Numbered from the stretch's first letter, positions 38,107 to 63,668 are shown. The stretch is 64,000 nt of DNA from Nitrospirota bacterium (GCA_963826885.1 CAWGYL010000002.1:129756-193755); one strand, 5' to 3'. The notes: generated from the letters alone by a model not told the origin. A program made the numbers and translations.

Positions 38107-38300
38107 CAAGAGACAAGAACGAGGAGTGAATGCCCGCCTCTCATCTTATATTCACAATTTACAAACCGATTTGTTGATTGTTTCAAAAAATGAGAACTAC
38201 ACGCTTGTAGGTGGATCTCGGAGAGCCAAGATTAGTCTACTACAGAATCTATACACCCCAATTCGCCTTTCTGACATTAGACAGAGTCTGTTTATTAATT

Positions 38301-38434
38301 AACAAAGCAATATATTCTAACCACCTATAGCGATGGGATATTCAAGGGTATTACAACAAATAGAGAATGGATATCGCACAACAAGATACATCTATAATTC
38401 TTCACCTCAATTAAATTATGATTTCTGAGAGATT
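38301..38434. repeat. 134-bp repeat R, copy 1 (direct repeat of 47569-47702)
   Basis: aacaaagcaatatattctaaccacctatagcgatgggatattcaagggtattacaacaaatagagaatggatatcgcacaacaagatacatct...atttctgagagatt matches 47569-47702 with 2 mismatches. Confidence 0.85.
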
Positions 38435-38650
38435 ATGCCAAGAACATATGCTTAATGCGTAATCGTGTCAATGATTCCGATGGAGTGTTTTAGAGTAGAT
38501 GTATGAGAATTCAAGTTCAAGTAAGCCGCTCCGCGGCAGAGAAGCAAAGACCGCTTCCTTCGCCTGTCCCATCTCGCCTGATTTTTTTTGAGTAATTTCC
38601 GTGCTACCATATTTCTCCATTGCAGTTCAATCTTATTTCACAAGGAGAAT

Positions 38651-39523
38651 ATGGTCATGGAAAACTGGTACGAGAAGTCCATCAATGCTTTGCAACTGAG
38701 CGGTATGTCCGAACGAACGCAGGCAAACTACACCCGCGCGGTGCGGCTGCTCACCGAGCATTACGGCAAGACCCCCGATCTCATTACCGAAGAAGAGCTT
38801 CAGGAGTACTTCCTCAATCGCAGGAATGTCAGCAAGTGGGCGCCCAACACCATGCGCATCTGCTATGCCGGGATCCGCTTCTTCTTTGAGACCGTACTTC
38901 AGCGCGACTGGCACATTCTCAGCATCATCCGGGCTCAGCCAGAACACCGGCTACCCACCGTACTCAGTACCGAAGAGGTGCTCAACATTCTCGCCCGAGT
39001 CTCTTCTCGTCGCAACCGCGCCTTCCTCTCCACGGTTTACTCCTGTGGTCTCCGGCTTCAGGAAGCGCGGTACCTAGAAACCGCTGATATCGACAGCAGT
39101 CGTATGATGATCCACATACGTAAGGGCAAAGGCGCGAAGGATCGTTACGTTCCACTTCCTCATGCGACGCTTGCCATTTTGCGAAAGCATTGGGATACAC
39201 ACAAAAACCCGAGGCTGATCTTCCCCTCACGGGTCTTACACGGCAAAAAATCGGATAGTCAGATCCCGGTCTCTATCAGCACAGTACAGAGAGCGCTCCG
39301 GGACGCGGTACATGCTGCGGGCATCCAGAAACGCGACGTTTCCATCCATACCTTGCGTCACTCGTATGCGACCCATTTGTTAGAAGCCGGTGTCAATCTG
39401 CGTGTGATCCAGCGGTATATGGGCCACTCCAGCCTTGAGACCACGATGATCTATCTCCATCTGACGACCAAGGGTCAGGATGATGCCTTCAAGCTCATCG
39501 ACCAGATCATGGTGGGGTTCTGA
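38651..39523 (+). CDS. Tyrosine recombinase / phage-integrase-family protein (orfA of the IS91-family element)
   Basis: R...HTLRHSYATHLLEAGVNLRVIQRYMGHSSLETTMIYLHL carries the R-H-R-Y catalytic box with the terminal Tyr. RBS aaggaga before the ATG at 38651. Confidence 0.8.
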   Translation: MVMENWYEKSINALQLSGMSERTQANYTRAVRLLTEHYGKTPDLITEEELQEYFLNRRNVSKWAPNTMRICYAGIRFFFETVLQRDWHILSIIRAQPEHRLPTVLSTEEVLNILARVSSRRNRAFLSTVYSCGLRLQEARYLETADIDSSRMMIHIRKGKGAKDRYVPLPHATLAILRKHWDTHKNPRLIFPSRVLHGKKSDSQIPVSISTVQRALRDAVHAAGIQKRDVSIHTLRHSYATHLLEAGVNLRVIQRYMGHSSLETTMIYLHLTTKGQDDAFKLIDQIMVGF

Positions 39524-39525
39524 TC

Positions 39526-40620
39526 ATGGATACGGTCAATGACATCTTCCGCACCTATGCCCCGGAGTACCTGACGCGGTTTGGTGGCGCTATCCCTGGG
39601 GAACATCGTAAGGCGATAACCGCGATTATCAACTGCCGCACCCCGGCCTCTGGAACGACCTACTTTCGGTGCGAATCGTGCGGGGAGCGGCACGCGATTC
39701 ACCGCTCCTGCGGAAATCGCCACTGCCCGACCTGCCAACATCATAAGAGTCAACAGTGGCTCGAAAAACAGCTTGATCGGCGTGTGCCGGGGCACCACTT
39801 CATGATTACCTTCACGGTGCCGGAACAAATTCGCCGGTTTATCCGGAGCAACCAGCGGGCGGCTTACGCCGCCCTGTTTTCCGCCTCCTCCGAAGCCATG
39901 AAAAAGCTGGTTCTCGACCCTAAGTTCATGGGCGGCGATCTGCCAGGCTTCTTCGGAGTCCTGCACACTTGGGGCAGAACGCTTGAGTATCATCCTCATA
40001 TCCACTATATCGTCGTAGGCGGAGCGCTCTCGTCTGATGACAAGACCTGGAAGCCCTCAGGAACCGGCTTCTATGTGCCGGTCGAAGCGTTGTCTCCCAT
40101 CTTTCGAGCGAAGTTCAAAGACGAAATGAAAAAGGCCGGTCTTTTTGATCAAATACCCGACGAAGTATGGCGAATTGACTGGAACGTAAACTCTCAGGCA
40201 ATTGGTTCAAGCGAGGCAAGCCTCAAGTATCTTGCCCCCTATGTCTTCCGGGTAGCCTTGTCCAACAGCCGTATCGTGAAAGTTGAGAACCGTCAGGTCT
40301 TCATTCGGTACAAAAAGACCGGGAGCAATCGCTGGAGGATGCTGGTCCTGGACGTAATGGAGTTTGTGCGCCGATTCCTCCAGCACGTGCTGCCAACGGG
40401 GTTCATGAAGGTGCGATATTACGGTTTCCTGAACGCCGCGTGCAAGGTCCCGCTTGAGAACATCAGGACGCTGATTGAGCTGGCTTATGGATTCGAGGTA
40501 ACAATGTCTGAAATCGAACAGATGCCGCCATTGCCCCGTCCAACCTGTGGAAGCTGCGGCGGCACGCTCAAAGTGCTTTATGTCTCTCTGCCGCATCAGC
40601 ACCTGGCACGCGCCGGATAG
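39526..40620 (+). CDS. IS91-family transposase (HUH endonuclease, Y2 type)
   Basis: N-terminal zinc-finger-like CxxC...HxxxCxxC (CESCGERHAIHRSCGNRHCPTC). HUH motif in HTWGRTLEYHPHIHYIV. The twin-tyrosine region YLAPYVFRVALSNSRI is present, as is C-terminal CGSCGG. Confidence 0.85.
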   Translation: MDTVNDIFRTYAPEYLTRFGGAIPGEHRKAITAIINCRTPASGTTYFRCESCGERHAIHRSCGNRHCPTCQHHKSQQWLEKQLDRRVPGHHFMITFTVPEQIRRFIRSNQRAAYAALFSASSEAMKKLVLDPKFMGGDLPGFFGVLHTWGRTLEYHPHIHYIVVGGALSSDDKTWKPSGTGFYVPVEALSPIFRAKFKDEMKKAGLFDQIPDEVWRIDWNVNSQAIGSSEASLKYLAPYVFRVALSNSRIVKVENRQVFIRYKKTGSNRWRMLVLDVMEFVRRFLQHVLPTGFMKVRYYGFLNAACKVPLENIRTLIELAYGFEVTMSEIEQMPPLPRPTCGSCGGTLKVLYVSLPHQHLARAG

Positions 40621-40967
40621 CATTTGACGATTCTGATGTACCATGTGTTTCTGACGTGTGGTCCCGCGGGTATTATCCGCGCGGTCAACGGCCCCGTTCG
40701 GCCATGTGCGCGGATTAGGCGTTCACTCCACGATACGCTAATCAAGAGAATCGCACTGGTTTCACGATAAACAGATTAAAACAGTCTATGGCACTCCATA
40801 ATCTACTCACTTCAGGCTTTCACCGGATATCACCCACCGAAGCATTACCCTATATATAGAGGACATCGGCCATCAGTCTGCCGCTCCGGGCTTCTTGAAC
40901 TATGGATTGAGCACGACGTAAAGATGTCGTCTCAATCCTTTTTGGTTGAAAATTACATCGTTCCAAA

Positions 40968-41110
40968 AAATGGAAACTCGTTTGCTACAGGAAGGATCTG
41001 CTGACAGAAAACATTATTACAAAATGCAATGATACATGTGATACAAAATGAATTCTGTACCTTCGCTAATATTATATGAAACTGGACTTCACTTTCTAGT
41101 CTGCAATTTC
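40968..41110. repeat. Interspersed modular repeat, B-type copy 1
   Basis: aatggaaact...caggaaggatctgctgacagaaaacattattacaaaatgcaatgatacatgtgatacaaaatgaattctgtaccttcgctaatattatatgaaactggacttcac is about 85-90% identical to 59090-59232. Confidence 0.75.
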
Positions 41111-41200
41111 GGCCTGCTGCTAGATGCGTTTATGTACGCCCGGTACAGGCATGAATTTATTGAGGTGCAAGTTCCCTGTACGAATATTCACTGATTTATT

Positions 41201-42301
41201 TTAGATGACAGAATCAGTTTCCTTCTTCGGTATCGGTGGAAGTTGTGCAGGGGACATTTCGGGCCCGAGTAATATCGCGATCCAACGTGTGCTTTTGTGA
41301 TTCTCGCACACATATTTCAGAGTCATGGTCAAAGGTATGCTCAGAACCACACCGATAAGACCGAGCAGGCCTCCCCAAAAAACCAGAGAGATAAATACAA
41401 CAAGCGTGGACAGGCCAAGCCTCCGACCCATGAGCACCGGCTCGACTACGTTGCCAAAAATGAAATCAACGGCCAGATATCCGATAGCCGCGAGCGAAGC
41501 ACGGCCTATCCCGAACTGGATCACGGCAAGAAAAACTGCGGGAACGGCGGCAATAAGCGCGCCGACATTAGGTACATAGTGGAGCAAAAATGCCAGGAAA
41601 CCCCAGAGAATGGGGAAATCTACACCGAGGAATGACAGCCATAACCCGATCAGGACACCTGTTATCAGACTAATTGCCGTTTTAATGGCCATATAGCGGT
41701 TGATATCATAGACGAACCTCATAAACCGGTGAAAGTCATGCTGAGGATCATCAAGAATAGCGCGGAATTTGATGGGAAAGCTCGAAGCTTCAAGGAGTAT
41801 GAAGGTTACGGCGAGCAGAATCAAGACGATCTCGAACAGCGCCGAGCCCAGCCCCTTGAACAAGCTGGCGGTCAGGCTCTTCACCGCTTCCGGTTTCATC
41901 TGATCGAGCAGAATAGAGTCCGTGAACGGGATACCCTTGGTTGCTAAAAACGTCTGGAGTGAAGAAAGATGCATCTGTAAGCGCGTCTGATAATATGGGA
42001 GATTCGCGTAAAAACTTTTAAGAGACGCGACGACGAGCCCTCCGATAACCACTAGAATAGTAGCCATGCACATCACCACGAGCAACACCGCGACTACATG
42101 AGGAATGCGTTTCTGCTCAATCCAGTGGACCGACGGCGTGCCGATGGCAGCCAGGAAGACAGCGACGAGAAACCATACCAGGACCGATTGTGCCTGATGA
42201 ATGTCTCCAGTGATGATCGCGAGCGCTGCCAAAATGACGAGTATGCGTGTTCCGCGGTGGGGATCACTTGGTTCAGCCATGGGCAAATACCTCTTCAACA
42301 A
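41201..42301 (-). CDS. AI-2E family transporter (PerM/UPF0118 permease)
   Basis: About 8 TM helices and 366 aa. Conserved LLHYVPNVGALIAAVPAV / GLLGLIGVVLSIPL pattern typical of AI-2E family permeases. Confidence 0.75.
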   Translation of the reverse strand: MLKRYLPMAEPSDPHRGTRILVILAALAIITGDIHQAQSVLVWFLVAVFLAAIGTPSVHWIEQKRIPHVVAVLLVVMCMATILVVIGGLVVASLKSFYANLPYYQTRLQMHLSSLQTFLATKGIPFTDSILLDQMKPEAVKSLTASLFKGLGSALFEIVLILLAVTFILLEASSFPIKFRAILDDPQHDFHRFMRFVYDINRYMAIKTAISLITGVLIGLWLSFLGVDFPILWGFLAFLLHYVPNVGALIAAVPAVFLAVIQFGIGRASLAAIGYLAVDFIFGNVVEPVLMGRRLGLSTLVVFISLVFWGGLLGLIGVVLSIPLTMTLKYVCENHKSTRWIAILLGPEMSPAQLPPIPKKETDSVI

Positions 42302-42499
42302 AGGATTATCGTTTCCGTGCTCCCGGGAAAAAGCGGAGATTCTGATGATTTGCTTCTTGAGTAAGCCGGTGGTCTATCCGGCAACTTCTGAATCAGACCC
42401 TCTGCTCCATCTCCGAGGCGTATTTGCCGAGACGCGCGAGGCCGTTCAGCCTCGCACGCTTGAAACAAATCCCAAGTAGCCCCTCATTAGGTGCTGAAT

Positions 42500-43480
42500 T
42501 CAATGAAAAACAGCTTCTGTCTGTTCCACCTTTTTCCACGTTTTATCAGGGTCATATGCTGTAACTGCTTTTGCTATCTCTTCCGTCTTGGGCCCGAGGT
42601 CCTTTTCATATACAACACCCTTTTGGTTAACCATGAAGGTCATGATCCCCGAAACGCCGTACTGTGCAGGATATGCCGCCAGGCCAAAACCTTTTACCAT
42701 TTTGCTGTTGACTACGTAATCAAGTTCGCCACCGGGAGCATTGCTGCCCTGGCTTTTCAGGATCTTGAAATAATACCCGTGATAAGGTGAGGGCTTTTCT
42801 CCTTTCCTAAATGTGTATCCTTCTTCTGTTGCACGGGCAATGAGTGGACCCAGAGGACTACTTTCCTCTCCAGAAGCGGCTTCCCAGTACAGGCCATCCT
42901 TCTCGTTTTTCTGGCTCTGAAAGTGTTGCGCGTATTGTAGTACTGCGTCGCTATTGCGTTCCTTGCTGGCATACTCACGCTGGGCATCCACATAAGCGAG
43001 AGAAACCTGAATGGTATTCAATTCGTTTCTGCCTATTCTCCGATTTATGATCTCTTCCTTACCATCTTCTGTAAAAAAAATCCATCCCTGGCCTGACTTC
43101 ACAATGGGAATCGGGAAGCACCATACATCTTTTCCGATATATACTAATAGTGTCTTGTCGTCAAATTTTGAAAACTTAACTCCTTCTGCAGCAGCCTTAG
43201 CGAAACGTTGGCGGCCCTGCGTATCGGCAATGGCATCGCCAGAGGATATGACATCTTTGCTTCCAGACCCGAAAATGGCCAGTAATTCTTTGGTGTCATT
43301 GTTCTTGTCTGCCTCTAAGAGAGCACTGAATGCGTCTTGTGGAGACTTGAACTCTCTTTGCCTTATTTCCTGAGCAGAGGCGAGAAAACCAAAAGCCGTT
43401 ACTTCAATTATGATCATGAAAGCTGCTAAATCACGGCAAAAAAAAGGGTTTTTTAGTTTTGTTACACGTCTGAACATCAT
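42500..43480 (-). CDS. Secreted protein of unknown function (resembles DUF2950-family proteins; attribution from memory, unverified)
   Basis: Signal peptide (K-rich n-region, ...AFGFLASA). About 300-aa mature protein with no catalytic motif. Likely start MMFRR at 43480 with perfect RBS ggaggaaaga. Co-oriented and closely spaced with 43571-44638 and the AI-2E transporter. Confidence 0.45.
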   Translation of the reverse strand: MMFRRVTKLKNPFFCRDLAAFMIIIEVTAFGFLASAQEIRQREFKSPQDAFSALLEADKNNDTKELLAIFGSGSKDVISSGDAIADTQGRQRFAKAAAEGVKFSKFDDKTLLVYIGKDVWCFPIPIVKSGQGWIFFTEDGKEEIINRRIGRNELNTIQVSLAYVDAQREYASKERNSDAVLQYAQHFQSQKNEKDGLYWEAASGEESSPLGPLIARATEEGYTFRKGEKPSPYHGYYFKILKSQGSNAPGGELDYVVNSKMVKGFGLAAYPAQYGVSGIMTFMVNQKGVVYEKDLGPKTEEIAKAVTAYDPDKTWKKVEQTEAVFH

Positions 43481-43570
43481 TCTTTCCTCCATAAATCGGC
43501 AATCCGATAATATTTCATTCATTTTTAATAACCGAGAGATGACGTCTGGCCGTCGAGACACTACATAGTT

Positions 43571-44638
43571 TCACCTGGAACGCCCGCCACGCCCGCCACC
43601 CCCGCCACCATGGTATCCTCCCCCACCGCCACCACGGGGAACTCCACCACCACTACCACGGATAACTCCACCACCAGTGGAGCTTCTACTAGCGGGGATT
43701 TGACCGGCCCTGGAGCGGCTTTGGAATCCACGGTTGCTCGCGGCCCGCTCAAACCGGCTGTTAGCGGAGCGCACAAAGGCACTTGAGCGAGTTGCAGCAG
43801 AAGATCCTGACACACCGTAGCCCCTGAATTGTTTAATTGCCTGTGCACCTCTCTGCGCAGAAGGACGGGCTCTTTGCATGTCTCCAGTTTCCGCGAAAGT
43901 TCCACCACGAAATCTGTTTGTCGGATCTATGCGCGACATCCTGCCTGTCCTGGGATCGCGATAATGATTGCTGATGAATCCTCCGAGCCTGCGCTCATGT
44001 TCATGCCGATGCCCATGCACTCTAATATCAAAGTCTACGAGAACAAAAAACCCCTGGAACCAGAAATCCGACCACCAAAAAGGATAAGGTACCCAAGTAT
44101 AAAGGTATGCATAATCGGGAGGTGGAGTATAGTACGTCACAACGGGGGGGCCTTCAGTAGAGTAATAGTTGTCCATGTCTGTGGATTCAGGGTAATTCGT
44201 GCCGGGTGTTTCACCCGGCAACTGCCCCACAGCAGGTCTTACGGGCATATCATATCCCTTTATGACCTCCTGAAAAGCTGCCATTGCCGCATCTTTTCCC
44301 CCAAATAATTTCCCAGAAGCAGCCGCTTCACTAATTGAAGCTTGTACCTCATCTATAATATCAGGCGTAACCGGGTAATCGGCGATCCATCCATTTCGGG
44401 GCGTTATGCCGACAGAACTCAATGCACTCTCCGCTTCAGCCTCACTCATCGCCGCGCCAAGTTTAAACGCTTCCGTGAGATCGACCGCAAAATCTCCTTC
44501 ACGAGTAAGTGGCTGTGCTATAGGGGGGGTTGCGACATTCGTCTGCTCTGATTGTGCAATTGCTGCTGCAGGGATCAATAGCAAAACGCCTAGCATGAAA
44601 ATAAACACTCTGAACAGTGATCTCCTCCTCATACACAT
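43571..44638 (-). CDS. Secreted protein with an aromatic-rich core and a long Gly/Arg/Ser-rich low-complexity C-terminal tail (DUF3300-like, attribution uncertain)
   Basis: Signal peptide MRRRSLFRVFIFMLGVLLLIPAAAIA. Central YYTPPPDYAYLYTWVPYPFWWSDFWFQGFF and a HGHRHEHERR segment. C-terminus ...GGGVIRGSGGGVPRGGGGGGYHGGGGGGRGGRSR. Confidence 0.4.
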   Translation of the reverse strand: MCMRRRSLFRVFIFMLGVLLLIPAAAIAQSEQTNVATPPIAQPLTREGDFAVDLTEAFKLGAAMSEAEAESALSSVGITPRNGWIADYPVTPDIIDEVQASISEAAASGKLFGGKDAAMAAFQEVIKGYDMPVRPAVGQLPGETPGTNYPESTDMDNYYSTEGPPVVTYYTPPPDYAYLYTWVPYPFWWSDFWFQGFFVLVDFDIRVHGHRHEHERRLGGFISNHYRDPRTGRMSRIDPTNRFRGGTFAETGDMQRARPSAQRGAQAIKQFRGYGVSGSSAATRSSAFVRSANSRFERAASNRGFQSRSRAGQIPASRSSTGGGVIRGSGGGVPRGGGGGGYHGGGGGGRGGRSR

Positions 44639-45121
44639 TCTCCTTCCCCAACTGGACCTTCCTATATTTTATCAAATAAAATGTCCTTACGGCAATTATA
44701 TACGGCAGTTTACTTTTGGAGTTAGCAGAAGAAAGTCTCTTATGTAGCAACGCGGACGAGGGAAGCCTCCGAAAAAAATGAGCATAATGAGCAAAATAAC
44801 AAATACAGTTCGAAAACTGAAGTGTTTCAAAGAATGGAAACTACAACAGCTATAGAAAGTATTCTGCGATTTCCAAAAGATGAAACTCTCGCGGACTACA
44901 GGAAGATAGTCGATGATTGTTTCCACTTAAGATTGATGAGGGGAAAAAACTACTACAATTCTACTACAGTTACAAGAAGAGGATTTACAAATAGTGATCC
45001 AACTCCCTAAAATAATTGGTGTCTCAAGATGGATTCGAACATCTGTAACCGCCTCTATTACCCACAAAAGAAAATGAGTTATGGGAAGTACCATAACTAA
45101 TTTATTTTATAAATATAATTT

Positions 45122-45169: not shown

Positions 45170-45590
45170 ACGTGACATTTTCAGCAAAAAACGTAACTGG
45201 GCGATTGGCAACGGCTTTGAGCTAACTTATGAAAAATCAAACTATTTTTTCGATTCTGTCTATTCTGCGGTTTCTGTAGATTCTGCCCTTGGAGCAAAAT
45301 TCTACGACAATTCTACGACAGTCTACGGCACCAGCCATACACACCAATTCACCTTTCTAACATTAGACGGTGTCTGTTTATTAATTTCACGTGGAGTTGA
45401 AATCATCCGGCACTATCCTGTGTGGGCGGGTCACAGCGGCAAAAAGAGCGGAACTTTGTCGTCAGAAAATATGCAAAACAATAGCACGATCAATCAACAT
45501 TTGGTTTCATTCTTTCGCAAAATGTTCGTCAATTGACCCGGGTTCGTGCAAATGCTCTTGCATACATTGCGTCATTTTATGCATCATCTT

Positions 45591-47528: not shown

Positions 47529-47568
47529 ACCTCGTATTCTTACAAAAAATTATATCACAGGTCGCGGT

Positions 47569-47702
47569 AACAAAGCAATATATTCTAACCACCTATAGCG
47601 ATGGGATATTCAAGGGTATTACAACAAATAGAGAATGGATATCGCACAACAAGATACATCTAATATTCTTCACCTCAATTAAATTATGATTTCTGAGAGA
47701 TT
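47569..47702. repeat. 134-bp repeat R, copy 2 (direct repeat of 38301-38434)
   Basis: See copy 1. Two mismatches over 134 bp. It lies about 200 bp downstream of the stop of the minus-strand hybrid kinase gene. Confidence 0.85.
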
Positions 47703-47913
47703 CACCTACAAGTCTGCGTAATCAATTTTGTGACAAGGGTCAAGAATACCACATGAAACATACTTCATCGCACGATATCTCATTGTTCTTCTCGATGGGT
47801 TGGTTAATATCATTGTATCGTGTTGCGTCCTCCTTATTCCAACATTTGTATCTTATAGCTGCTCACCATGCTCTCTTGCGTTACGCGTATGTGAAGCTTC
47901 ATGGAGCAACCCG

Positions 47914-50550
<2,637 letters not shown>

Positions 50551-51493: not shown

Positions 51494-51830
51494 ACATCAT
51501 TCATCTATCGACATAAAGCTCGCAGATATTCCAATTAGGTAAAATTATTAGCCGCTAAGCAGGCAAATCAGGATGTGCCTGTTTTTTTTAAAGCAAGAAT
51601 AAAGCATGTAACATACACGTTTCAAAAAACTTGCTCGTTACAGTTTACAGGAAGGATCAGACGCTGAATGATTCAATCGATATCCTTCACTTCAGTCAAA
51701 TCCTGGTCCTTAGAAGAGCCACCTACTAGTCCGTAATTTCGATCATTCGAAGCTATCATCAAATACGGATAGTATAATGCACATGAACGTCGTGGGCGCG
51801 TCCGGGCGCATGTTCGGGAACAGGATGGGA

Positions 51831-52742: not shown

Positions 52743-52924
52743 TGAAGATTCCCTGTTGTGGCATCCTTGCTAACAGTTGCATTCCCGGCGACACAAGTGG
52801 TTTTTTGGATTCGAAAGGACATTCCCATGCCGCCGCATTGATAACAAGTAATTAGCTCTTCGGAATACAGTATCATAGCCTCGGCTGACATGCAACTTAC
52901 ACTACCATTAAACCGTCGGCGGGT

Positions 52925-53030
52925 GCAACTGCCTTAGAAGAGGAAGGACAGTGGACTAAAAAGTTCAAACGGAATTATTCACTTTTGTTATCAATTCTGC
53001 CCTCCAGCCTTCACCTCCCATGAAGAGGTT
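52925..53030. repeat. Interspersed modular repeat, A-type copy
   Basis: caactgccttagaagaggaaggacagtggactaaaaagttcaaacggaattattcacttttg shares the GGAAGGAC...TTGACTAA.AACTTCAAAC.GAAT.ATTCA core with copies at 56570, 60775 (rc) and 63590 (rc). Confidence 0.7.
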
Positions 53031-53317
53031 TATCAAGTGCCGCCTTGGGATTTTTTGTTAAATGCTAATATGGCATCATGCTTTTAAGCACATCAGTCTC
53101 GCCAAACAGTCCGGTAATTTATTAGGGAATCAGCCATCCTCCCATTCGAGATCACCCTATTGGTGTCTCACCTTATTGATGCTGATGGCACGCCCATTCT
53201 ACAAGCCGGTTTTTTCAACCAAGGTGAATGGTCGGGCTATGCCAAACCGTTGATTCCTATATCCCGGTTCATCTTTGTGAGAGCTGATCTTCTTGATCTT
53301 ATTTCCCTCGCATTCTG

Positions 53318-54346
53318 TTAGTTCGTCCGCAGCAAACTTGCATCATAAGGTTTTCGGTCACGAAGCACGTAAAAGATAATCTCTATCAATTTTCTTGCTA
53401 ATGCGACTACTGCAGTCTTGTTGCCTCTTCTCCTGGCTATACGTTCATACCATTTCCTCAATGGTTTGCTTTCACTGTTTGTACTTCGTAATATTGCATG
53501 CGCACTCTGAACTGCTACGTGCCTGACTTCGCTTCGTCCCTCGCGGGTTATATGGCCATAATCAGCCCGCTCTCCACTACTAAACACACTTGGCACAAGA
53601 CCGCAATAACTCGTTAACTGCTTTGCTCGCTTGAATCGCGTTATGGTCGAGATCGCGGCATAATAGGTCTTGGAGGACACCTCGCCGACTCCGGGCACGC
53701 TCTTCAATAACGCAACATCCTTATTTTGGTAGTCCGCAATCACGTCATCCAGCACGTCTTTTTGCTTTCGGAGCTCTGCAATCGCTTTCCCATAACTCTC
53801 AACGATTGGATTTAGGTGTTTTGGAACGCTTTTATTCTCCTGGAGCCTTGTAAAGATCGATTCATCATCGAAAGCTTTTGTCTTGAGTTTTATTCCTTCT
53901 TGTCGCAACATGCCCCGTAGATGGTTCTTAAGGCATGTTGAACTCTTTAAAAGTTGGTGTCGAGAGCGTAAGAGATCGCGTAACTCTCGGCTATCGCCCT
54001 CTGCCATATACACTCTTTCGGGCAATTCGTCTATCCGTAATAATTTTGCAAGGAATATGGCATCTACCTTGTCGGTCTTCTTCTTGTTCTTGGCAATGAG
54101 CTTTACCTTGTTAGGATTAACAATATAAACGCTGATTCCCAGCTTCTTGAGCGTATCATGTATCCAACGGCTATGGCCGCCTGCCTCGACTGCTACCTTT
54201 ACAGGCTTATTCATCCATCGCTTGAAATACTGCCGATAGCCATCCTTATCCGTAGGGATCTCTTGGCTCTCGACCTTTCTTCCTTTGCCATCGGTGACGT
54301 ACACATAACTGCTTTTCTCAGATACATCGCATCCAATGTAGAACAT
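53318..54346 (-). CDS. IS110-family (DEDD) transposase, second copy, a different family member from 1356-2663
   Basis: FYIGCDVSEKSSYV N-terminus, KTDKVDAIFLAKL, and C-terminal LKSVPGVGEVSSKTYYAAISTITRFKRAKQLTSYCGLVPSVFSSGERADYGHITREGRSEVRHVAV. RBS aaggagg 7 nt before the ATG at 54346. Confidence 0.85.
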   Translation of the reverse strand: MFYIGCDVSEKSSYVYVTDGKGRKVESQEIPTDKDGYRQYFKRWMNKPVKVAVEAGGHSRWIHDTLKKLGISVYIVNPNKVKLIAKNKKKTDKVDAIFLAKLLRIDELPERVYMAEGDSRELRDLLRSRHQLLKSSTCLKNHLRGMLRQEGIKLKTKAFDDESIFTRLQENKSVPKHLNPIVESYGKAIAELRKQKDVLDDVIADYQNKDVALLKSVPGVGEVSSKTYYAAISTITRFKRAKQLTSYCGLVPSVFSSGERADYGHITREGRSEVRHVAVQSAHAILRSTNSESKPLRKWYERIARRRGNKTAVVALARKLIEIIFYVLRDRKPYDASLLRTN

Positions 54347-54665
54347 GGCGGCTACCTCCTTACTGTGATATTTGTTACTTCTAATCACATGGTAGCACCG
54401 AATATTTGTTTTCCCCCTCCTTCATAATATCTACAAGTATGGAATGTCACCCATTTGAAGGCTCCCTGTCAAGTGAAAAAATTACCCCGTGACGAGAAAA
54501 TGATATTTTCTCGAGTGGAGGTGTTTGATCGTCTGGAGTTTGATGTTGATGTGAAGATACGTATCTTCAAAGATGAAAGGCCGTAGCTCTGCCTTTTCCC
54601 GGCGCTCTTTGACGTGGCAAAAAAAAACGTCAAGGGCAGTCAAGCAGATCCTATTAGTCGTACTG
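54347..54665 (-). ncRNA. Candidate bridge-RNA-encoding left end of the IS110-family element. Inference only
   Basis: About 320 bp of ORF-free sequence immediately 5' of the transposase gene, the position where IS110-group elements encode their non-coding guide (bridge) RNA. No structure was computed. Confidence 0.25.
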
Positions 54666-56366: not shown

Positions 56367-56569
56367 AGAAATAAACCTCCACTCGAAGATTACCCTGTAT
56401 TTGAAGCGGATTTTAAACGGTTAGGTTCTTTTTTGCAAACAATGGTATCATATCATCAAAATGAATTATTGTATAGCATGCTTGTGCAATAGCGGTATTT
56501 GCCGCGAGTGGATTATGAGGCATCCAGAGGATGGAAATTTTGCAGTTGATAATTTGGATTGTTGCAAGG

Positions 56570-56680
56570 AATGGAAATTCAACATGAACAGGAAGGACAA
56601 TTGACTAAGAACTTCAAACAGAATTTATCACTTTTTTGGCGATTCCGGCTCTCCGAGCTTCACCTAACCTACAAGTCTGT
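56570..56680. repeat. Interspersed modular repeat, A-type copy
   Basis: caggaaggacaattgactaagaacttcaaacagaatttatcacttttttggcgattccggctctccgagcttcacctaacctacaagtctg. Confidence 0.7.
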
Positions 56681-56802
56681 ACTCTCGTTGACAAAAATCT
56701 ATCCAGAATTCTACTTGATAATTGTAAATGAACGCGCCCTTCACCGGCAGGTACGCAGCGTAGCGGCGTACCTGACTGCAAGTAAGAACTGAGGTTTTAG
56801 GA

Positions 56803-57417: not shown

Positions 57418-57530
57418 CGGTTCCTCTCTTTCTCTGTTACTGTTTCCGCATAGGTTCCCCCCTTTTTCAACGTCGTTTCCAATTCTTCAATCGCAATCAC
57501 CTTCGGATTGTTGCTAAAAAATAAGCGACC
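57418..57530 (-). pseudogene. Degraded remnant (last ~35 codons) of a paralog of the HMA-like gene at 372-734
   Basis: The minus-strand translation ...LFFSNNPKVIAIEELETTLKKGEPMRKQ* aligns with the C-terminus ...[32 protein letters not shown] of the 372-734 product. An in-frame stop lies just upstream. It sits directly 5' of the intact msrA, mirroring the arrangement at 372-964. Confidence 0.4.
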
Positions 57531-57673
57531 ACCACAGCGTTCCTACGACGTGTTTGGGTTTCGCTGTGCGGTCGCTATTCACCCCCCTGAGGGTTTGATG
57601 TCACATGTCACCACCTAAGTCGCCTTCTTCCCCGCGATCGCTAGGCTTAGTTCGCTACCGCTTTCACTCCTTC

Positions 57674-58372
57674 CTAGGCGGCCTTTTCCATGAGCGCCCT
57701 GGCGGCCTTTTCGATGAGTGCGGCCACTGCTTTCGGCTGCGACACGTAGATCGCGTGACTGCCTGCGACCTCGATGACAGTCGAACCAGCGCGCTTGGAC
57801 ATGAAGCGCTGAGCCGCCGGCGGGATCATCTTGTCGTCGGTGGTAACCAGGTACCAGCTCGGCTTGGTCTTCCAAGCCGCCTCGCTGATCGTGCCGTTGA
57901 GCGCGTCCAGGCCCCATGGGACTTGGGAGTCTGCCATGAATGCGGCCTTTTCAATGTCCACGTCACCCGCGAATGAGGCTGGGAACTTCGCCTTGTCGAG
58001 TAAGAGATATCCGTCCTGCGGCGCCAGTATTGGAGGCACAGGCGCGCCCGGCGGTGGATCCTTGATAAGCGTGGACACAGACTCACCCTTGTCCAGAGCA
58101 AAGGCGGTGATATAGACAAGCCCCGCTACCTTTGGATCGTTGCCGGCTTCGGTGATCACTGCTCCGCCGTAGGAGTGGCCGACGAGAACCACTGGGCCAT
58201 TCTGTAGGGCGATAATGCGCTTGGTTGCGGCGACATCGTCGGCCAGAGATATCGTCGGATTCTGAACGATGCTGACCATGTAGTCGTCCTTCTTCAGGAT
58301 CTTATAGACACCTTCCCAACCAGAGCCGTCCACGAAGCCACCATGGACGAGAACGATATTCGTTGTTTTCAT
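57674..58372 (-). CDS. Alpha/beta-fold hydrolase
   Basis: IVLVHGGF...LVGHSYGG (nucleophile elbow GxSxG) ...GSHAIY. 232 aa. Confidence 0.7.
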   Translation of the reverse strand: MKTTNIVLVHGGFVDGSGWEGVYKILKKDDYMVSIVQNPTISLADDVAATKRIIALQNGPVVLVGHSYGGAVITEAGNDPKVAGLVYITAFALDKGESVSTLIKDPPPGAPVPPILAPQDGYLLLDKAKFPASFAGDVDIEKAAFMADSQVPWGLDALNGTISEAAWKTKPSWYLVTTDDKMIPPAAQRFMSKRAGSTVIEVAGSHAIYVSQPKAVAALIEKAARALMEKAA

Positions 58373-59089
58373 TTGAAGTCTCCTTTCTTGTGTACTCGTA
58401 AAGTCAAAGTCTAGCCACAGAGAGCATTCGGAACACTTTGCATTTTAGGAGTAATTTGCATTTCAAGTTCCTCTCCCCCCTCTGTGGCCTTTTACTACAT
58501 GCGCCTTTTCTGTTTCTGCAATATTTTAAATTCCCTGTTTGTCTCTATTCTCCGCATACTTATGCCTGACTATCTTTTCTCCTTGTACCCTGGGGTTTCA
58601 TAATGTACCCTTTTTTCCATCAAACTTTTGACATTATCTGTGTACTCTCCACGATAAAATCGAGTCATTTTCTTGCCCGCCGGACACTGACGTCTTCAGT
58701 TGAGGCGTCTACACTCAACACCCGCTCTCTTCCTAAGAGCAGGCGGAATCCGCGGGATCATCTACGGACCGTGGATAAACACAATTGTCTTCGCTCCTTG
58801 AACGCTTATGCAAATTCTCTCAAGAACGATAAGCCTATTCAATAATTTAATTGTTGCTCGATTTATATGAATGTCAAGCCGATGAAAGTATTAACTCACA
58901 AACCGGCGCGATCAGGCTGGTCAGAAGGTCAAAAGGGGAAAAAAAGGGTAAAATCATCATTCGTGACATGTGTCTATGCCTTGGCGCTCCTAGGGAACAA
59001 GGATGTGCCTAACATCCCAGTGCATCATGAACGGGGATTTTTTTTAGTAGATGCTGTTGAATTCAGCTTGAAACTTTATGTGTTGTAAT

Positions 59090-59232
59090 AATGGAAACTA
59101 CAACTGCCTTAGAAGAGGAAGGACTCGGTGACAGAAAACATTATCACAAAATGCTATGATACATGATACAAAATGAAATTTACACCTTCGCTAATATTTT
59201 ATGAAACTCGGCTTCACAAGCTTGTACTTTCC
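59090..59232. repeat. Interspersed modular repeat, B-type copy 2
   Basis: aatggaaactacaactgccttagaagaggaaggactcggtgacagaaaacattatcacaaaatgctatgatacatgatacaaaatgaaatttacaccttcgctaatattttatgaaactcggcttcac; see 40968-41110. Confidence 0.75.
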
Positions 59233-59506
59233 AATATTTGAAACTATAAACGATTATTGGTAGTATCATGCATACCTGTCAGGAAGAGAAACTCGGGCTG
59301 TCGAAGCGTGATCAGGTTGTGCAGATCCTCGATGCATTCCTGGGAAGTAAGAAATTGGCAAAGACCGTATAACAGCTTACCCCTTCCAGTATGTCAGGTC
59401 TCGCATTTATTTTTTATATACGCAATGTTGAGATATAACACTATTAGAATTTCTAAAATAACAAGAAACGCAAATAGCCCTAACGGTGGGAAGATGGAAA
59501 GCAACA

Positions 59507-60142
59507 TCAATTCCTTCGATTTGAATTTACTGCCGTACGTTGGACATTTTTATTATTCTGTAATTTCATGTGAATACCGACTAGTCCCAGCAATACCGAG
59601 CCAAACAGCCAAGCTGCCGCAGGAATCGGAGTAAAAATGAGTGTTGTTGACTGGAGATACAAATCGTTGTTATCTCGCAAATTGACATCGCCAGAAGTAG
59701 AAATGTATTCCACCTCACCGCTATTAGATGTTCTGCTCACATATGTCTGAATGTAATTTGGAGTATCTTCCGACCACCCAAGTAATTCAACACTAGACAT
59801 TTCGTAATTCGTTGCATTAGTGTAAGTATAAGAAGGATTAGGATTCGGCATCGAAAAGGTTCCGAGCAAATTTCCCGACATATCGTAATAAGAGCCATTA
59901 ACAAGCCAAGAAAGATTCGGTGCGGTTGTATCACCCGAGTAAGTATCGCTCCCAATTATAATTACATTTTGATTCGTCGTTATGTCTTGACCCTGCAAAT
60001 TCAAACTACTATCAGTCTCTAATGTTCCAATTCCACTAAAATTATCGGTTACATTTACATAATTTGCTCTTGATTCATAAGTCATGCCCAATACCGCTAC
60101 AATTAAGAAAACTACCACCAAAAGCAATCTCATTCTTTTCAT
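59507..60142 (-). CDS. Secreted Ser/Thr/Asn-rich protein with a PEP-CTERM-like (VPLPA-type) C-terminal sorting signal
   Basis: Signal peptide MKRMRLLLVVVFLIVAVLG. C-terminus ...TPIPAAAWLFGSVLLGLVGIHMKLQNNK is a Pro-containing motif plus TM helix plus basic tail, matching the exosortase-substrate layout. The gene is AT-rich. Confidence 0.5.
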   Translation of the reverse strand: MKRMRLLLVVVFLIVAVLGMTYESRANYVNVTDNFSGIGTLETDSSLNLQGQDITTNQNVIIIGSDTYSGDTTAPNLSWLVNGSYYDMSGNLLGTFSMPNPNPSYTYTNATNYEMSSVELLGWSEDTPNYIQTYVSRTSNSGEVEYISTSGDVNLRDNNDLYLQSTTLIFTPIPAAAWLFGSVLLGLVGIHMKLQNNKNVQRTAVNSNRRN

Positions 60143-60224
60143 TTTTTATCCTCCTTTTACCCTACCTGTTGACAGAGATATATGCAATAATTTTGAACTA
60201 AAAGAGATTCTCTCTGGCAACAAT

Positions 60225-60275
60225 AAAAAACCCGGACTGATCATTGAACTATCACAATGATCGATCCGGGTTTTC
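60225..60275. terminator. Long perfect palindromic stem-loop, terminator-like
   Basis: aaaaaacccggactgatcattg-aactatca-caatgatcgatccgggtttt: a stem of about 20 bp with flanking A/T runs. Confidence 0.35.
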
Positions 60276-60774
60276 TGGTTCCTTTATTTGTAAGGACAGC
60301 AAAGGGCCCGCAGATACCGCCTAAAGCCTACTTCGTACACAATCGCTAATTATGGAAACCCGCCAAGCGTATATTTCCATAAATAATTTTTTTTGAGAAG
60401 AAGGGAGGATGATTTGGGTTATATGTATCACACTTATGTTAAAATCTTGTGACGATTTGATTAATTCTTAAGTGGGAATGGGTTATATATGGGTTGAGGG
60501 TGCATACTACGCGGGAATCGGTCTCAGCATTGTTGAGCGTGTAATTCAAAGGCATGGCGGGAAAGTGTGGGCTGAAGGCGAACCTGCCAAGGGGGCGACT
60601 TTTTATTTTACCGTCCCTGCAACTGTGGGGGAGATGTGAAAAATCGTTTAATTTGAAAATCAAACATGGTTTAGAGCGTTCTGAAAGGTCGGAAAAAACG
60701 CGTTTCTTAGCCTGGCCTCCATATGCAGTTTTCATCTAGTATTTCGCATAGAAACTTTGTCAACGTGGGTGCAT

Positions 60775-60860
60775 GCTTGTAGGTGGAGCCCGCAGAGCCA
60801 GGATCAGAAAAATAATGAATTATTCCGTTTGAAGTTTTTAGTCAAAGCTCCTTCCTTGAA
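60775..60860. repeat. Interspersed modular repeat, A-type copy in reverse orientation
   Basis: The reverse complement reads caaggaaggagctttgactaaaaacttcaaacggaataattcattatttttctgatcctggctctgcgggctccacctac. Confidence 0.7.
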
Positions 60861-61179
60861 AACGTTGAAGTTGCAATTCTTTGAAACACATCAATTTGCA
60901 TTCAGCAGCTGTTAACGTCGCCTACCATATAAACTCCTAAGAATTCTCATTTATTGCTAAAGTTATATGCTAATACCCCGATAAGAATATCAACCAGTTT
61001 GCAGAAGTTATTTGACTGACTCTATGCATCTATGACATTAATGATCAGAGTGTATATGCTTAAATCATAAAGCATATAAAATGATGTTAGAACAGCTAGT
61101 CCTGGTATCTCAAACGTCTTTGCTTTATCTCTCAAACAACTTGTGAGCTGTTATTTTATATTACCTTGAGGAGAATTAA

Positions 61180-62838
61180 ATGGCACACATAGATATACTG
61201 AAGCCGGCAAAAGAGAACAAAACTAAGATAGCGGATTTTAAGGTCATGGATTACCCCAGTTTGCGGCGGCCTTTGACCGTCCCCGTGGAAGAGTTGAACG
61301 AGGGCATCTTTGAAGAAGGCCTCAGGTACGACGTCTCCAATATCCTCAGCTGGCAGGTCATCCACATGCGCGGCCTATTGGATGAGCAGTTTCGCACACC
61401 CCTGTTTGATGCAATGGTCAATCTTGCGGAGAGCCGCAAGGTTTCCTTCCATACCCCCGGTCATAAAAGCGGCAAAGGCATATCCACCCGGTTTCGCGAG
61501 TTCGTGGGACCGCGCATTTTTTCCATCGACTTAACGACTCTCGACGAAGTAGACTCCTTGCAGAACCCCACCGGCGTGATCAAGGAAGCCCAGGAACTGG
61601 CAGCCAAAGCAGCCGGGGCGGACCGCTCCTACTTTCTAGTGAACGGAACGACCGTGGGCAACCATGCCATGGTGGCGTCCACGACCGGCCCCGGAGACAA
61701 GGTCCTGATAGCCAGAAATTGCCACCGTTCAGTGCTTACCGGTCTTATCATGAGTGGCGCTCAGCCGATCTTTTTCCAGCCGGCCTTTAACCGGGACTTG
61801 AAGCTCACCCTGAACGTCACATTTGAGACCGCGAAGCAGGCCATTGACGCAAACCCGGACGCCCGCGCTCTTCTGATCACCAGCCCGAACTACTACGGTC
61901 TCTGCGCGGACATTGAAAAAATCATTCCCTACGCTCACGAGAAGGGTCTTTTCGTGTGCGTGGACGAAGCGCACGGTCCTCATCTCAAGTTCAACCCCAA
62001 GCTCCCCAAATGCGCCCTTGATGCCGGCGCCGACCTCTGCGTCCAATCGACCCACAAGATCGTCGGCGGCCTAACACAGGCGTCCATGCTGCATGCAAAA
62101 ACAGGCAGGATCAATATCGACGACGTGACGAACACGCTAAAGCTCCTCCAGACAACGAGCCCCTCCTACATCCTGATGGCGTCTTTGGACCTGGCCCGGA
62201 TGCAGATGGCGACAGAAGGCAAGACACTCCTCAACCATACCATAAAACTCGCCGAGGAAGCCCGGTCCAAAATCCAGGAAATCAACGGCATCAGCTGCTT
62301 TGGCAGGGAGCGGGCGAAAGCCGTCGGCATGGCTGACTTGGACGTGACGAAACTCATGATCACTGTTTCTGACTTGGGGCTTTCCGGCTACCAAGTGTCC
62401 CATTTGCTGAATACCAGGTTCGGCATCCAGGTCGAGATGGCCGACCCTTTCCATGTGCTTGTTATTGTTTCGATCGGCGACCGGCAGGACGACCTCGAGC
62501 GTCTCGTGGAAGCCCTCCGGCAGATATCGGCAGAGACCGGCCCCCAGAGAGCGCGTCTGCCGCTGGACAAAGTCCATCCGCCGATGTTTCAGAACCGCTT
62601 CGCCATGACTCCGCGTAATGCATTCTATTCAGATAGTGAGCTGGTGAATGTTCATGATTCCGTAGGTAGGGTTTCTACGGAGATCGTGACCGTCTACCCC
62701 CCCGGCATCCCGCTTCTCGTGCCCGGAGAAGAGATATCCCAGGACGCCATCGACTACTTCCAGAACATGGCAGGCCTCGGCGCCATCATCGACGGGTTGA
62801 CTGAAAACAATACACGCGTACGCGTGTCTAAAGCGTAA
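61180..62838 (+). CDS. PLP-dependent Orn/Lys/Arg decarboxylase family enzyme (fold-type I, SpeA-like)
   Basis: FHTPGHKSGKG, SYFLVNGTTVGN and QSTHKIVGGLTQASMLH (PLP-Lys region) are characteristic of the OKR_DC_1 major domain. 552 aa. Confidence 0.85.
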   Translation: MAHIDILKPAKENKTKIADFKVMDYPSLRRPLTVPVEELNEGIFEEGLRYDVSNILSWQVIHMRGLLDEQFRTPLFDAMVNLAESRKVSFHTPGHKSGKGISTRFREFVGPRIFSIDLTTLDEVDSLQNPTGVIKEAQELAAKAAGADRSYFLVNGTTVGNHAMVASTTGPGDKVLIARNCHRSVLTGLIMSGAQPIFFQPAFNRDLKLTLNVTFETAKQAIDANPDARALLITSPNYYGLCADIEKIIPYAHEKGLFVCVDEAHGPHLKFNPKLPKCALDAGADLCVQSTHKIVGGLTQASMLHAKTGRINIDDVTNTLKLLQTTSPSYILMASLDLARMQMATEGKTLLNHTIKLAEEARSKIQEINGISCFGRERAKAVGMADLDVTKLMITVSDLGLSGYQVSHLLNTRFGIQVEMADPFHVLVIVSIGDRQDDLERLVEALRQISAETGPQRARLPLDKVHPPMFQNRFAMTPRNAFYSDSELVNVHDSVGRVSTEIVTVYPPGIPLLVPGEEISQDAIDYFQNMAGLGAIIDGLTENNTRVRVSKA

Positions 62839-62980
62839 ATCCGGCAAACCATTGAGAAGGACCAATTACGCCCAAAGATGTAATGAATCTGGCAAAAAAA
62901 CAAAGCAAAGATGGTGGATTGTCACACAATATTTGGATCCTAGGTGCATGCCGTTTCTTTTTAACAGAAAGGATATAAGG

Positions 62981-63415
62981 ATGAAAAATAAAGTGATTAT
63001 TTTGGGTGTGCCCGGAATTTATTTATTGTTGACCGCAGCGGCTATTTATTACTTGGTTGAAATACTGCAATTGAATTTCACTATGGCACTTCTGACAGTT
63101 ACAAGTGTATTCTGGTCGATAGCCGGGATAGTAATATTTCTATTAAGAGATAAGCTTTACAGTGGATTAGTAAAGTTATCTAAAGACAAAAAAGAAAGAC
63201 TTCTTAACAATTATATGCGCCAATTAAAATTGTATTGGTTTATGCTATGGTCGTCTCCCATATATGCATTGACTATTATCGCCGTTTACAAATACGTACC
63301 AGATGTGCAACTAGATTTTATCAATATTGCAATCATAGCAGTTTCGTTTTATTTAGGGGCAATTTTAAGCATACTGAAAATAAAGTATGTATCAATGAAA
63401 TTGAAAAATATTTAA
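62981..63415 (+). CDS. AT-rich small integral membrane protein, hypothetical
   Basis: Four TM helices. Its GC content is markedly lower than that of the neighbouring decarboxylase gene. Likely start MKNKVIILG; the ORF track starts at 62852. Confidence 0.35.
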   Translation: MKNKVIILGVPGIYLLLTAAAIYYLVEILQLNFTMALLTVTSVFWSIAGIVIFLLRDKLYSGLVKLSKDKKERLLNNYMRQLKLYWFMLWSSPIYALTIIAVYKYVPDVQLDFINIAIIAVSFYLGAILSILKIKYVSMKLKNI

Positions 63416-63589
63416 TAAATTAAGCGTGGAACGTCACATCAAAGCAGATTGGTATTGCACTACGTAAAAATACTAACACAGCAGTCGAGCCATCCTCGCT
63501 TCGCTCGGTTGCTCACCTTATCGTTTAAATGTATGTAAGCTACAACCCGCCATTCTTCACCTTTGTCATATTTCTGTCATTCCATGATA

Positions 63590-63668
63590 GTAGGTGGATC
63601 AAGGCGAGCCAAGACCACAACGAATATGAATAATTCTGTTCGAAGTTTTCAGTCAAGTGTTCTTTCTG
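63590..63668. repeat. Interspersed modular repeat, A-type copy in reverse orientation
   Basis: The reverse complement reads cagaaagaacacttgactgaaaacttcgaacagaattattcatattcgttgtggtcttggctcgccttgatccacctac. Confidence 0.65.

Follow-up and report, generated by a model that had tools for sequence, protein, structure and literature searches.

What kind of element is repeated through the second half of this locus, and what does it do there? The stretch in question, 64,000 nucleotides (nt) of a Nitrospirota bacterium (GCA_963826885.1, CAWGYL010000002.1:129756-193755; hereafter the window), carries many short modular repeats among ordinary and mobile genes. A preliminary description of this DNA listed seven copies and two fragments, likened them to BOX or Correia elements, and proposed that they could be MITEs (miniature inverted-repeat transposable elements), transcriptional or RNA elements, or preferred insertion targets of the resident IS110 elements. 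We class the family as an interspersed mosaic repeat or recombination site without an Rfam family match, and read its copies as neither classical MITEs nor RNA elements. Gene blocks in related genomes change partners at two short cores within the repeat, an insertion sequence (IS) of the IS91 family always lands at the outer end of one of its arms, and the same arms flank a tyrosine recombinase gene in related contigs. All coordinates refer to the window, L-numbers denote retrieved related loci, and two orientations are used, namely that of the preliminary description and its reverse complement, which we term gene-sense.

An nhmmer profile made from four copies and then iterated recovered all nine sites as one family, together with two full copies that had been missed, at 33854-34047(-) and 51595-51770(+). 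E-values ran from 1e-26 to 5e-38 for full copies and from 1e-4 to 5e-8 for fragments, against a best E of 3 in the reversed window used as control, and the strict motif TTCRAACNGAATNNNTCAY-N29-CACCT occurred five times in the window and never in 100 shuffles. The repeat family itself is real, and the earlier description is confirmed in part; exact-seed repeat finding likewise picked up a number of these pairs (63-99% identity). The iterated profile yielded eight full and four partial copies in the window, all within 33.8-63.7 kb, which forms a local hot spot of about 12 copies per 30 kb; the first 33 kb of the window contain none. Every copy lies between long open reading frames (ORFs), in agreement with the intergenic placement proposed earlier. 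Because the full copy at 33854-34047 had been overlooked, the family begins upstream of the interval first assigned to it (38196-63668), and the element, at about 170-200 nt, is longer than first described. Even with three mismatches allowed, nothing in the window matches the 46-nt 5' module attributed to the element, which proved to be a composite of the copies at 44805-44868 and 59060-59260. The A and B bodies do exist, as variants of the middle module of one element that aligns end to end, but not as alternative, unrelated continuations.

In gene-sense, a copy reads U - core1 - M - core2 - D. The well-conserved arm D (about 55 bp) carries core2 (CCTTCCTGTA..) at its inner end, and arm U, also about 55 bp and ending inward in core1 (..CTTGTAGGTG), is its degenerate inverted counterpart. 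The enclosed module M (65-95 bp) holds the conserved block GTGAATAATTCNGTTTGAA and differs in sequence and length, with A-type and B-type variants, one variant with a 19-nt insertion, and short forms. The consensus of 90 non-redundant sequences is ..GCGTTCAT..CAAGTAGAATTCTGCATAGATTTTTGTCAAC....TGCA..CTT GTAGGTG on the U side, continued after core1 by.AG.CCGGAGAGCCAGAAT....GTGAATAATTCNGTTTGAAGTTTTTAGTCAAC..T CCTTCCTGTA ...GTTGAAGTTTCCATTCTTTGCAACA.T.AA.TTTCAAC.NGAATTC. Its most conserved columns are the cores, GTAGGTG for core1 and CCTTCCTG[TA], with the motif CTTCCTG, for core2 (64 and 50 non-redundant copies, respectively). GTAGGTG and CTTCCTG are near-invariant across copies that are otherwise about 55% identical, which argues for selection on these motifs. 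U with core1 aligned to inverted D with core2 above reversed, shuffled and direct-orientation controls, also after removal of the cores, with p-values that are inflated by the non-independence of the pairs; arm U of L023 (GTTGAAACTCGTTTGCTTGTAGGTGAAG) and arm D of the copy at 40944-41117 (ATGGAAACTCGTTTGCTACAGGAAGG) are clear twins. Exact-seed repeat finding detected no inverted repeats inside a copy. The conserved tips of the arms are their inner ends, not their outer ends, and partial copies, comprising either core2 and D only or U, core1 and M, are frequent. As side observations, core1 in the preliminary orientation (e.g., TCACCTCC, 53012-53022) resembles the 3' end of 16S rRNA, in gene-sense it is the Shine-Dalgarno-like GGAGGTGA without a start codon after it, and core2 (CCTTCCT) is partly complementary to core1.

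The cores are also the places where related genomes part company. Breakpoints were defined as the ends, lying inside both contigs, of alignments that span 400 nt or more with 90% identity or better in an all-against-all comparison of the loci. Repeats cover 4.8% of this DNA and contain 48 of its 91 distinct internal breakpoints (p about 1e-38); core1 (model positions 120-139) accounts for 21 of these and core2 (positions 40-69) for 16. Downstream of the gene for PMSR (methionine sulfoxide reductase), for example, the window and L026 are 95% identical and agree through ..CAGACTTGTAGGT, which is core1 of the copy at 56538-56712; beyond it, L026 has another M module, another D arm and other downstream genes. 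Four further pairs (L027/L057, L040/window, L042/L059 and L066/window) are common from (T)GTAGGTG onward with unrelated upstream DNA, and L026/L064, L042/L057 and L001/window switch at core2, CCTTCCTG(TA). Within the window, these breakpoints fall at 33897, core1 of the copy at 33854-34047 (versus L040 and L061); at 52943, core2 of the copy at 52888-53069, where the strain variant L001 changes sequence; and at 63587, beside core1 of the copy at 63548-63720 (versus L066). A 4.3-kb block (33897-38234) that comprises a 321-aa gene and a histidine kinase recurs in L061 at 97.7% identity with different flanks, including the upstream DNA. The mix-and-match structure noticed earlier is therefore real and consists of modules exchanged between copies, with switches at two short, near-invariant cores. 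As the cores measure 7-10 nt and the flanking modules are 55-85% identical, ordinary homologous recombination is an unlikely cause.

A candidate enzyme emerged from the related contigs. The unit at L026 3366-4660, which is common to L064 with different flanks, has core2 on both sides and encloses a tRNA-Lys(CTT) gene (L026 3552-3627, L064 279-354) immediately upstream of a 280-codon tyrosine recombinase gene, in the order core2-D-tRNA-integrase-core2; in L026, a 13-nt inverted repeat (CCCAGAGGCCACA / TGTTGCCTCTGGG) closely flanks the integrase gene. The L026 recombinase is Xer/IntI-like and scores below every curated cut-off. Five contexts of intact homologues, 80-86% identical and chosen by protein similarity alone, all had repeat matches within 1.5 kb. 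In L078, the intact 279-aa gene lies between inverted arms of D with core2 at 2805-2859(+) and 3987-3924(-) (nhmmer E = 1.4e-9 and 0.007), with a 45-nt inverted repeat there that ends in CTACAGGATGG / CCATCCTGTAG; in L079 and L080, inverted core2 motifs stand on both sides of the integrase gene; and in L026, L064 and L052, core2 with D follows about 60-90 nt past it. Since the arms are twins and flank the integrase, the short element has the same plan as the integrase element, with inverted arms, cores inside, and either a gene or a 65-95-bp module enclosed. The recombinase family itself is very large, almost all of its members being exactly 279 aa (P0121-P0240), many on contigs of 1-3 kb and in clusters of up to 173 members, and its named sources include Nitrospirota ('Ca. 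Sulfobium'), Syntrophorhabdales, Syntrophaceae and Asgard archaeal metagenome-assembled genomes (MAGs).

The inverted arms around the 279-aa recombinase gene suggest that the repeats are most likely its recombinase-less miniature derivatives or dispersed sites. We therefore lean, tentatively and at not quite an even chance, toward the reading that the repeats are miniature derivatives, or recombination sites, of the integrase element and serve, at the level of DNA, as junctions for shuffling. Members of the 279-aa integrase family, acting in trans, would exchange strands at core1 and core2 and so swap middle modules; where the two copies involved belong to different loci, the intervening gene blocks would be moved or exchanged, and arm D would in addition offer a ter-like GTTGAAA site to the IS91-family element. 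The family, its anatomy, its orientation relative to genes, the concentration of breakpoints at the cores, the IS91 targeting and the arms around an integrase gene are observed, whereas we infer that the short copies derive from the long integrase element and that this recombinase family catalyses exchange at the cores. Several observations weigh against this. The similarity between U and D is weak, long arms stand on both sides of the gene at one locus only (L078), L077 and L081 have no core2 beside the integrase gene, and the two copies of that gene inside repeat-bounded units are broken (stop codon in L026, frameshift in L064). The window has no integrase of the 279-aa family. No indel coincides with a copy in any pair of loci of the small set compared (about 0.6 Mb), so that the mobility of the short elements is unsupported by filled and empty sites. 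The co-orientation of copies with genes, described below, is unaccounted for by a nearly symmetric recombination site, exchange at cores of 7-10 nt could instead be microhomology-mediated, and all comparisons are between metagenome assemblies, which can break or be mis-joined at repeats. If true, the reading would reveal a new way for an uncultured, environmentally abundant lineage to keep part of its chromosome fluid, in which short oriented junctions let ordinary gene blocks (sensor kinases, transporters, and repair or biosynthetic enzymes) reshuffle between strains, and it would provide a testable substrate for a very widespread, uncharacterised family of tyrosine recombinases.

The best-surviving rival, which we regard as unlikely, dispenses with a dedicated enzyme. 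On this view an old dispersed sequence is in decay and the copies are what remains of it, and RecA-dependent or microhomology recombination, or template switching, among about 100 copies would place junctions wherever identity is highest. The breakpoints do coincide with the best-conserved columns, some junctions differ by several nucleotides around core1, no filled/empty polymorphism was found in the set compared, and no recombinase is consistently adjacent across loci; in tblastn searches, the integrase, IS91 and IS110 genes of the window were not associated with repeats in other loci, save in the IS91 contexts that were retrieved deliberately. Nevertheless, more than 13 independent junctions fall at 7-10-nt cores amid 55-85% identity, far under the length usual for homologous recombination; the near-invariance of the two cores implies selection on them; and the same arms flank an integrase gene.

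Among known systems, the repeat in its working seems most like the NIME/dRS3 mosaics of Neisseria, integron attC sites and the pdif modules of Acinetobacter, with BIME/REP elements as a parallel for use as an IS target. NIME/dRS3 arrays are intergenic mosaics of short conserved repeats between variable modules, and are sites of rearrangement and of site-specific integration of mobile DNA. The Nitrospirota repeat is likewise an intergenic mosaic, a rearrangement site and a mobile-DNA target; however, dRS3 is a 20-bp inverted repeat in NIME arrays, whereas here a single unit combines a pair of arms, each of about 55 bp, with two distinct cores of 7-10 nt, its copies are oriented with genes, and no sequence similarity to dRS3 exists. 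As with attC sites, the repeats follow genes in co-orientation, bounded blocks (33897-38234; L026 3366-4660) recur with different flanks, exchange takes place at short conserved cores, and a recombinase of the Xer/IntI-like tyrosine family is linked. Unlike attC sites, they have no folded R''/L''-L'/R' palindrome and no RYYYAAC...GTTRRRY cores, GTAGGTG and CTTCCTG standing in their place; no intI-attI-Pc platform was found within the window, and the 'cassettes' would be one to three genes with long intergenic regions of their own. The window's own tyrosine recombinase belongs to the IS91-family element and reaches 170 bits against an integron-integrase cut-off of 265. The pdif sites of Acinetobacter also bound gene modules in varied contexts with short Xer-type recombinase sites, but these are 28-bp 11-6-11 dif-like plasmid sites, in contrast to the arms of about 55 bp, unrelated cores and chromosomal location here. 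The BIME/REP (PU) elements of Escherichia coli, with insertions of IS1397/ISKpn1 or IS110-family elements, are similarly dispersed intergenic mosaics and specific IS targets; REP sequences are short stable palindromes, whereas the present repeat has no hairpin or consensus fold and the IS that targets it is of the IS91 family. The defining features of integron attC, REP, BOX and Correia elements were lacking, and these identities were rejected. A stronger form of our preferred reading, which we judge unlikely as it stands, is an integron-like chromosomal shuffling system in which a widespread family of 279-aa Xer-like recombinases would excise, integrate and exchange blocks of one to three ordinary genes by means of paired, non-palindromic arms (about 55 bp) with two short cores, and would need no attC hairpins, no attI and no intI platform. 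In MAGs of Asgard archaea and syntrophic bacteria, members of this integrase family might do likewise with other site families.

The repeat is also the target of a resident IS. The IS91-family insertion sequence of the window (38515-40944, +; ends from six contexts) encodes a tyrosine recombinase (integrase; 38588-39523, +) and a Y2 transposase (39526-40620, +), as assigned by Pfam/NCBIfam, and it is multi-copy, identical transposase sequences being indexed in 99 blocks of the collection. Its left end at 38515 reads GTTCAAGTAAGCCGCTCCGCGGC.. (GTTC, then a palindrome) and its right end at 40944 reads ..CCTTTTTG (..GTCGTCTCAATCCTTTTTG). It sits 5' of GTTG (40945-40948), the outer end of arm D of the copy at 40944-41117, and in all six independent contexts the right end is followed, in the preliminary orientation, by GTTG and then by a different arm D copy. 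The left flanks end ..GAAT(T/A)C(A/T)G, which gives the layout ..GAAT(T/A)C(A/T)G / IS / GTTGAAA..; the landing site is ..GAATTCNG / GTTGAAA.., without duplication. IS91-family elements make no target duplication, have a 5'-CTTG/GTTC-type tetranucleotide beside oriIS, and carry at terIS both a palindrome and the cleavage site GTTC/CTCG (PMC13181058). The insertion behaviour of the resident IS matches this family, yet its specificity goes well past four bases, so that an IS91-family element is documented here with target choice far beyond a tetranucleotide. The idea that the repeats are preferred targets of a resident IS thus holds for the IS91-family element, which occupies the same position in six contexts; for IS110, such targeting was not supported: the IS110-family transposase gene at 53318-54388(-) (Pfam DEDD_Tnp_IS110 and Transposase_20) adjoins arm U of the copy at 52888-53069 and was found in one and the same genomic context in all look-ups, and a second IS110-family gene (435 aa, 1356-2663, -) lies outside any repeat, with a lone core1-like TTGTAGGTG at 1279-1287, just 3' of it. 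Directly upstream of this second gene, on the same strand at 2988-3276(-), group II intron domains were detected (Rfam RF02001 and RF01998; E = 1e-30 and 8.5e-10).

Another rival holds that the repeat, or its M module, is itself a non-autonomous mini-IS91 or an orphan oriIS/terIS end, moved together with adjacent genes by a Y2 transposase through one-ended transposition beside (C/G)TTG. We consider this decidedly unlikely. It would fit the invariable landing at GTTG at the outer end of arm D, the occurrence of (C/G)TTG at core1 (CTTG/TAGGTG), after core2 (..GTTGAAG) and in arm U, and the missing target-site duplications, which agree with the IS91 family (PMC13181058). The gene-sense end of M, GTTTGAAG..CCTTCCTGTA, furthermore resembles the ISCR oriIS sequences GCGGTTGAACTTCCTATACC (PMC8894482) and GTGGTTTATACTTCCTATACCC (PMC13023784), although this likeness requires a gap of 17 nt. 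Neither the repeat nor its cores showed significant similarity to the ends of the resident IS, the sole match (p = 0.01 among 24 tests) falling within the flank of a gene; subterminal palindromes, which IS91 ends typically have, are missing from the repeats; and junctions at core1 do not always keep CTTG. The copy at 40944-41117 was rejected as the oriIS end of the resident element because the IS stops at 40944, before the copy.

The options of a MITE, an RNA element and a transcriptional element, which had been put forward at the outset, fared badly. No target-site duplication was detected at the flanks of 25 full copies, GAATTC being present near both ends but at differing distances; filled/empty pairs were lacking, as mentioned above; and such inverted repeats as exist are both long and degenerate, all of which speaks against a classical MITE. 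Like MITEs, Correia elements (CREE), RUP and BOX, the repeat is small, has many intergenic copies, is modular (as is BOX) and may have a related larger enzyme-encoding element. In contrast to MITEs, it lacks both sharp terminal inverted repeats and a stable fold as RNA or DNA, the inner arm ends are the parts that are conserved and recombine, and the candidate parent encodes a tyrosine recombinase rather than a DDE transposase. Ends shared with an enzyme-encoding element, another MITE trait, were seen at two to three loci only (D with core2 arms at L078, core2 at L079/L080). As for the resemblance to BOX and Correia elements, modularity held and everything else failed, for no fold, Rfam match, inverted repeats or duplication was found: the boxA-boxB-boxC modules have a stable predicted structure, and the 26-bp terminal inverted repeats, TA duplication and IHF site of Correia elements were missing here, as was WATCAANNNNTTR from the consensus on inspection.

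The RNA option met with uniformly negative results. RNAalifold placed no consensus pair on either strand in 6 or 18 copies (0 kcal/mol for 18), single-copy folding z-scores were near 0 (means -0.5 and -0.1), and Rfam gave no match at E <= 1 in 33.5-64 kb; at gathering thresholds, the only Rfam matches in the window were the group II intron domains. A scan for sigma-70 promoter and intrinsic terminator consensus sequences showed no enrichment over shuffles and no conserved hairpin with a U-tract. The copies are non-coding, with conservation that lacks 3-nt periodicity and open frames on both strands no longer than in shuffles. A small ORF (METTTALEEEG..., and gene-sense frames) was rejected on account of stops or frameshifts in most copies, the missing codon periodicity and frame lengths as in shuffles, and a sigma-54 reading of TGGAAAC..TGC was rejected after sequence inspection, as the spacing and the GC dinucleotide vary across copies.

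The repeats are, on the other hand, clearly arranged with respect to genes. On crude ORF maps, gene-sense copies were co-oriented with the upstream neighbour in 69 of 88 cases (p = 8e-8) and with the downstream neighbour in 63 of 87 (p = 3e-5), the preliminary orientation being almost always antisense to the neighbouring genes. All copies within a locus share one orientation, and in the window copy orientation flips where gene direction flips, which argues against a tie to replication direction. Copies start 48-400 nt past a stop codon and end 46-650 nt ahead of the next start codon. A cis-regulatory or transcript element, such as a Rho-utilisation-like C/U-rich tract in a 3' untranslated region, a protein-binding insulator or a promoter module whose orientation is kept since it is read in the transcript, would account for this co-orientation, for the unstructured and, in its gene-sense second half, pyrimidine-rich sequence and for conserved blocks such as that in M, but it is the most doubtful of the alternatives, given the negative promoter and terminator scans, the broad distances to stop and start codons and the relatives without the element described below, and it leaves the breakpoints, the IS targeting and the arms around the integrase gene unexplained.

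The wider search showed that the family is not restricted to this locus. The profile found about 100 further copies in related Nitrospirota contigs. A motif scan of one genome per species gave 10 loci, with about four chance matches expected; seven of the 10 lie in five species-level Nitrospirota MAGs, and one more, with four copies, in contig L027. In a motif scan of metagenomes, 38 of 41 contigs had profile-confirmed copies. Relatives with a UbiB about 80% identical to that of the window had no copy in about 100 kb of contigs, and the plasmid and phage collections contained no similar DNA. Given its presence in several MAGs (at least five of Nitrospirota) and metagenome contigs, and its absence from the contigs of those relatives, we take the family to occur throughout the genomes of one Nitrospirota sub-clade, beyond this locus. 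The named homologues of the window UbiB come from MAGs of Nitrospirota or 'Nitrospiraceae bacterium'. No description of such a Nitrospirota repeat was found in the searchable literature. The copies account for the breaks that assemblies of these genomes show at such points, and they provide a marker motif for the clade. The contig L027 (CAVOUC010000029.1), binned as 'uncultured Alphaproteobacteria' from the same sample, carries, besides its four copies, a stretch 78% identical to the IS110 region of the window, and is probably misbinned.

Of the individual copies in the window, three full ones have A-type middle modules. These lie at 60736-60914(-) (core1 60779-60785, core2 60850-60857; nhmmer E = 5e-38), at 63548-63720(-) (core1 63590-63596, core2 63661-63668; E = 5e-31) and, between the PMSR and UbiB genes, at 56538-56712(+) (core2 56589-56596, core1 56666-56672; E = 2.7e-34). 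Core1 of the last contains a 5-nt tandem duplication, GTAGGT-TAGGT-GAAG (56661-56672), a type of scar that aberrant staggered-cut recombination could leave. Two full copies have B-type modules 87% identical to each other, one at 40944-41117(+) (core2 40988-40995, degenerate core1 41090-41096; E = 1.6e-26) and one at 59060-59260(+) (core2 about 59116-59123, degenerate core1 about 59212-59220; E = 8e-27). The remaining full copies are those at 33854-34047(-), with a degenerate core1 CAAGGTG at 33895-33901, core2 at 33986-33993 and the 19-nt insertion in its middle module (E = 1.5e-31); at 51595-51770(+), with core2 at 51648-51655 and core1 at 51720-51726 (E = 3e-30); and at 52888-53069(+), with core2 at 52940-52947 and core1 GGAGGTG at 53012-53018 (E = 1.5e-29), the arm U of which abuts the 3' flank of the IS110-family gene.

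Among the partial copies, the one at 38169-38233(-) runs from arm U through core1 (38207-38213) into the first part of M (E = 7e-10); it is cut at 38233/38234 by inserted DNA, and the same site is uninterrupted in L061. A 67-nt repeat with a small palindrome (ACAGAGTCTGT) occurs at 38234-38300 and 45320-45386 at 84% identity, its first copy beginning exactly at this truncation point. The 135-nt partial copy at 38300-38434(+) contains arm D, core2 in degenerate form and the greater part of M (nhmmer model positions 30-120); it is a direct repeat of 47568-47702 at 99% identity and stops exactly where core1 should start. The copy at 47568-47748(+) consists of a degenerate arm D and core2, the middle module, core1 at 47703-47709 and arm U (E = 5e-18, model positions 30-167). 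Arm D and core2 only, the latter at about 44852-44859, are present at 44805-44868(+) (E = 5e-10, motif search), near a second partial core2 at 44897-44905.

The ordinary genes that flank the copies encode hybrid histidine kinases, an AI-2E transporter, DUF2950, UbiB, PMSR, a hydrolase and an Orn/Lys/Arg decarboxylase, and among them stand the mobile genes, namely the tyrosine recombinase and IS91 Y2 transposase pair and the two IS110-family genes. Two paralogous hybrid histidine kinases of about 879 aa, in inverted orientation at 35467-38106(+) and 47914-50550(-), bracket the IS91-family element and the AI-2E transporter and DUF2950 genes, which suggests an inversion or duplication in the region. 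In L011, compared with L012 and L013 (another Nitrospirota species, 99.5-100% identical), three indels of about 105 nt were observed, e.g., at L011 4034-4140, 8895-9004 and 14805-14909, which could represent a different small insertion element or assembly gaps. Finally, near the start of the window, a stretch of 220 nt (640-859) matches a segment of the PMSR gene (about 57.0-57.3 kb) at 79% identity, a sign of a second PMSR paralogue, whole or fragmentary.

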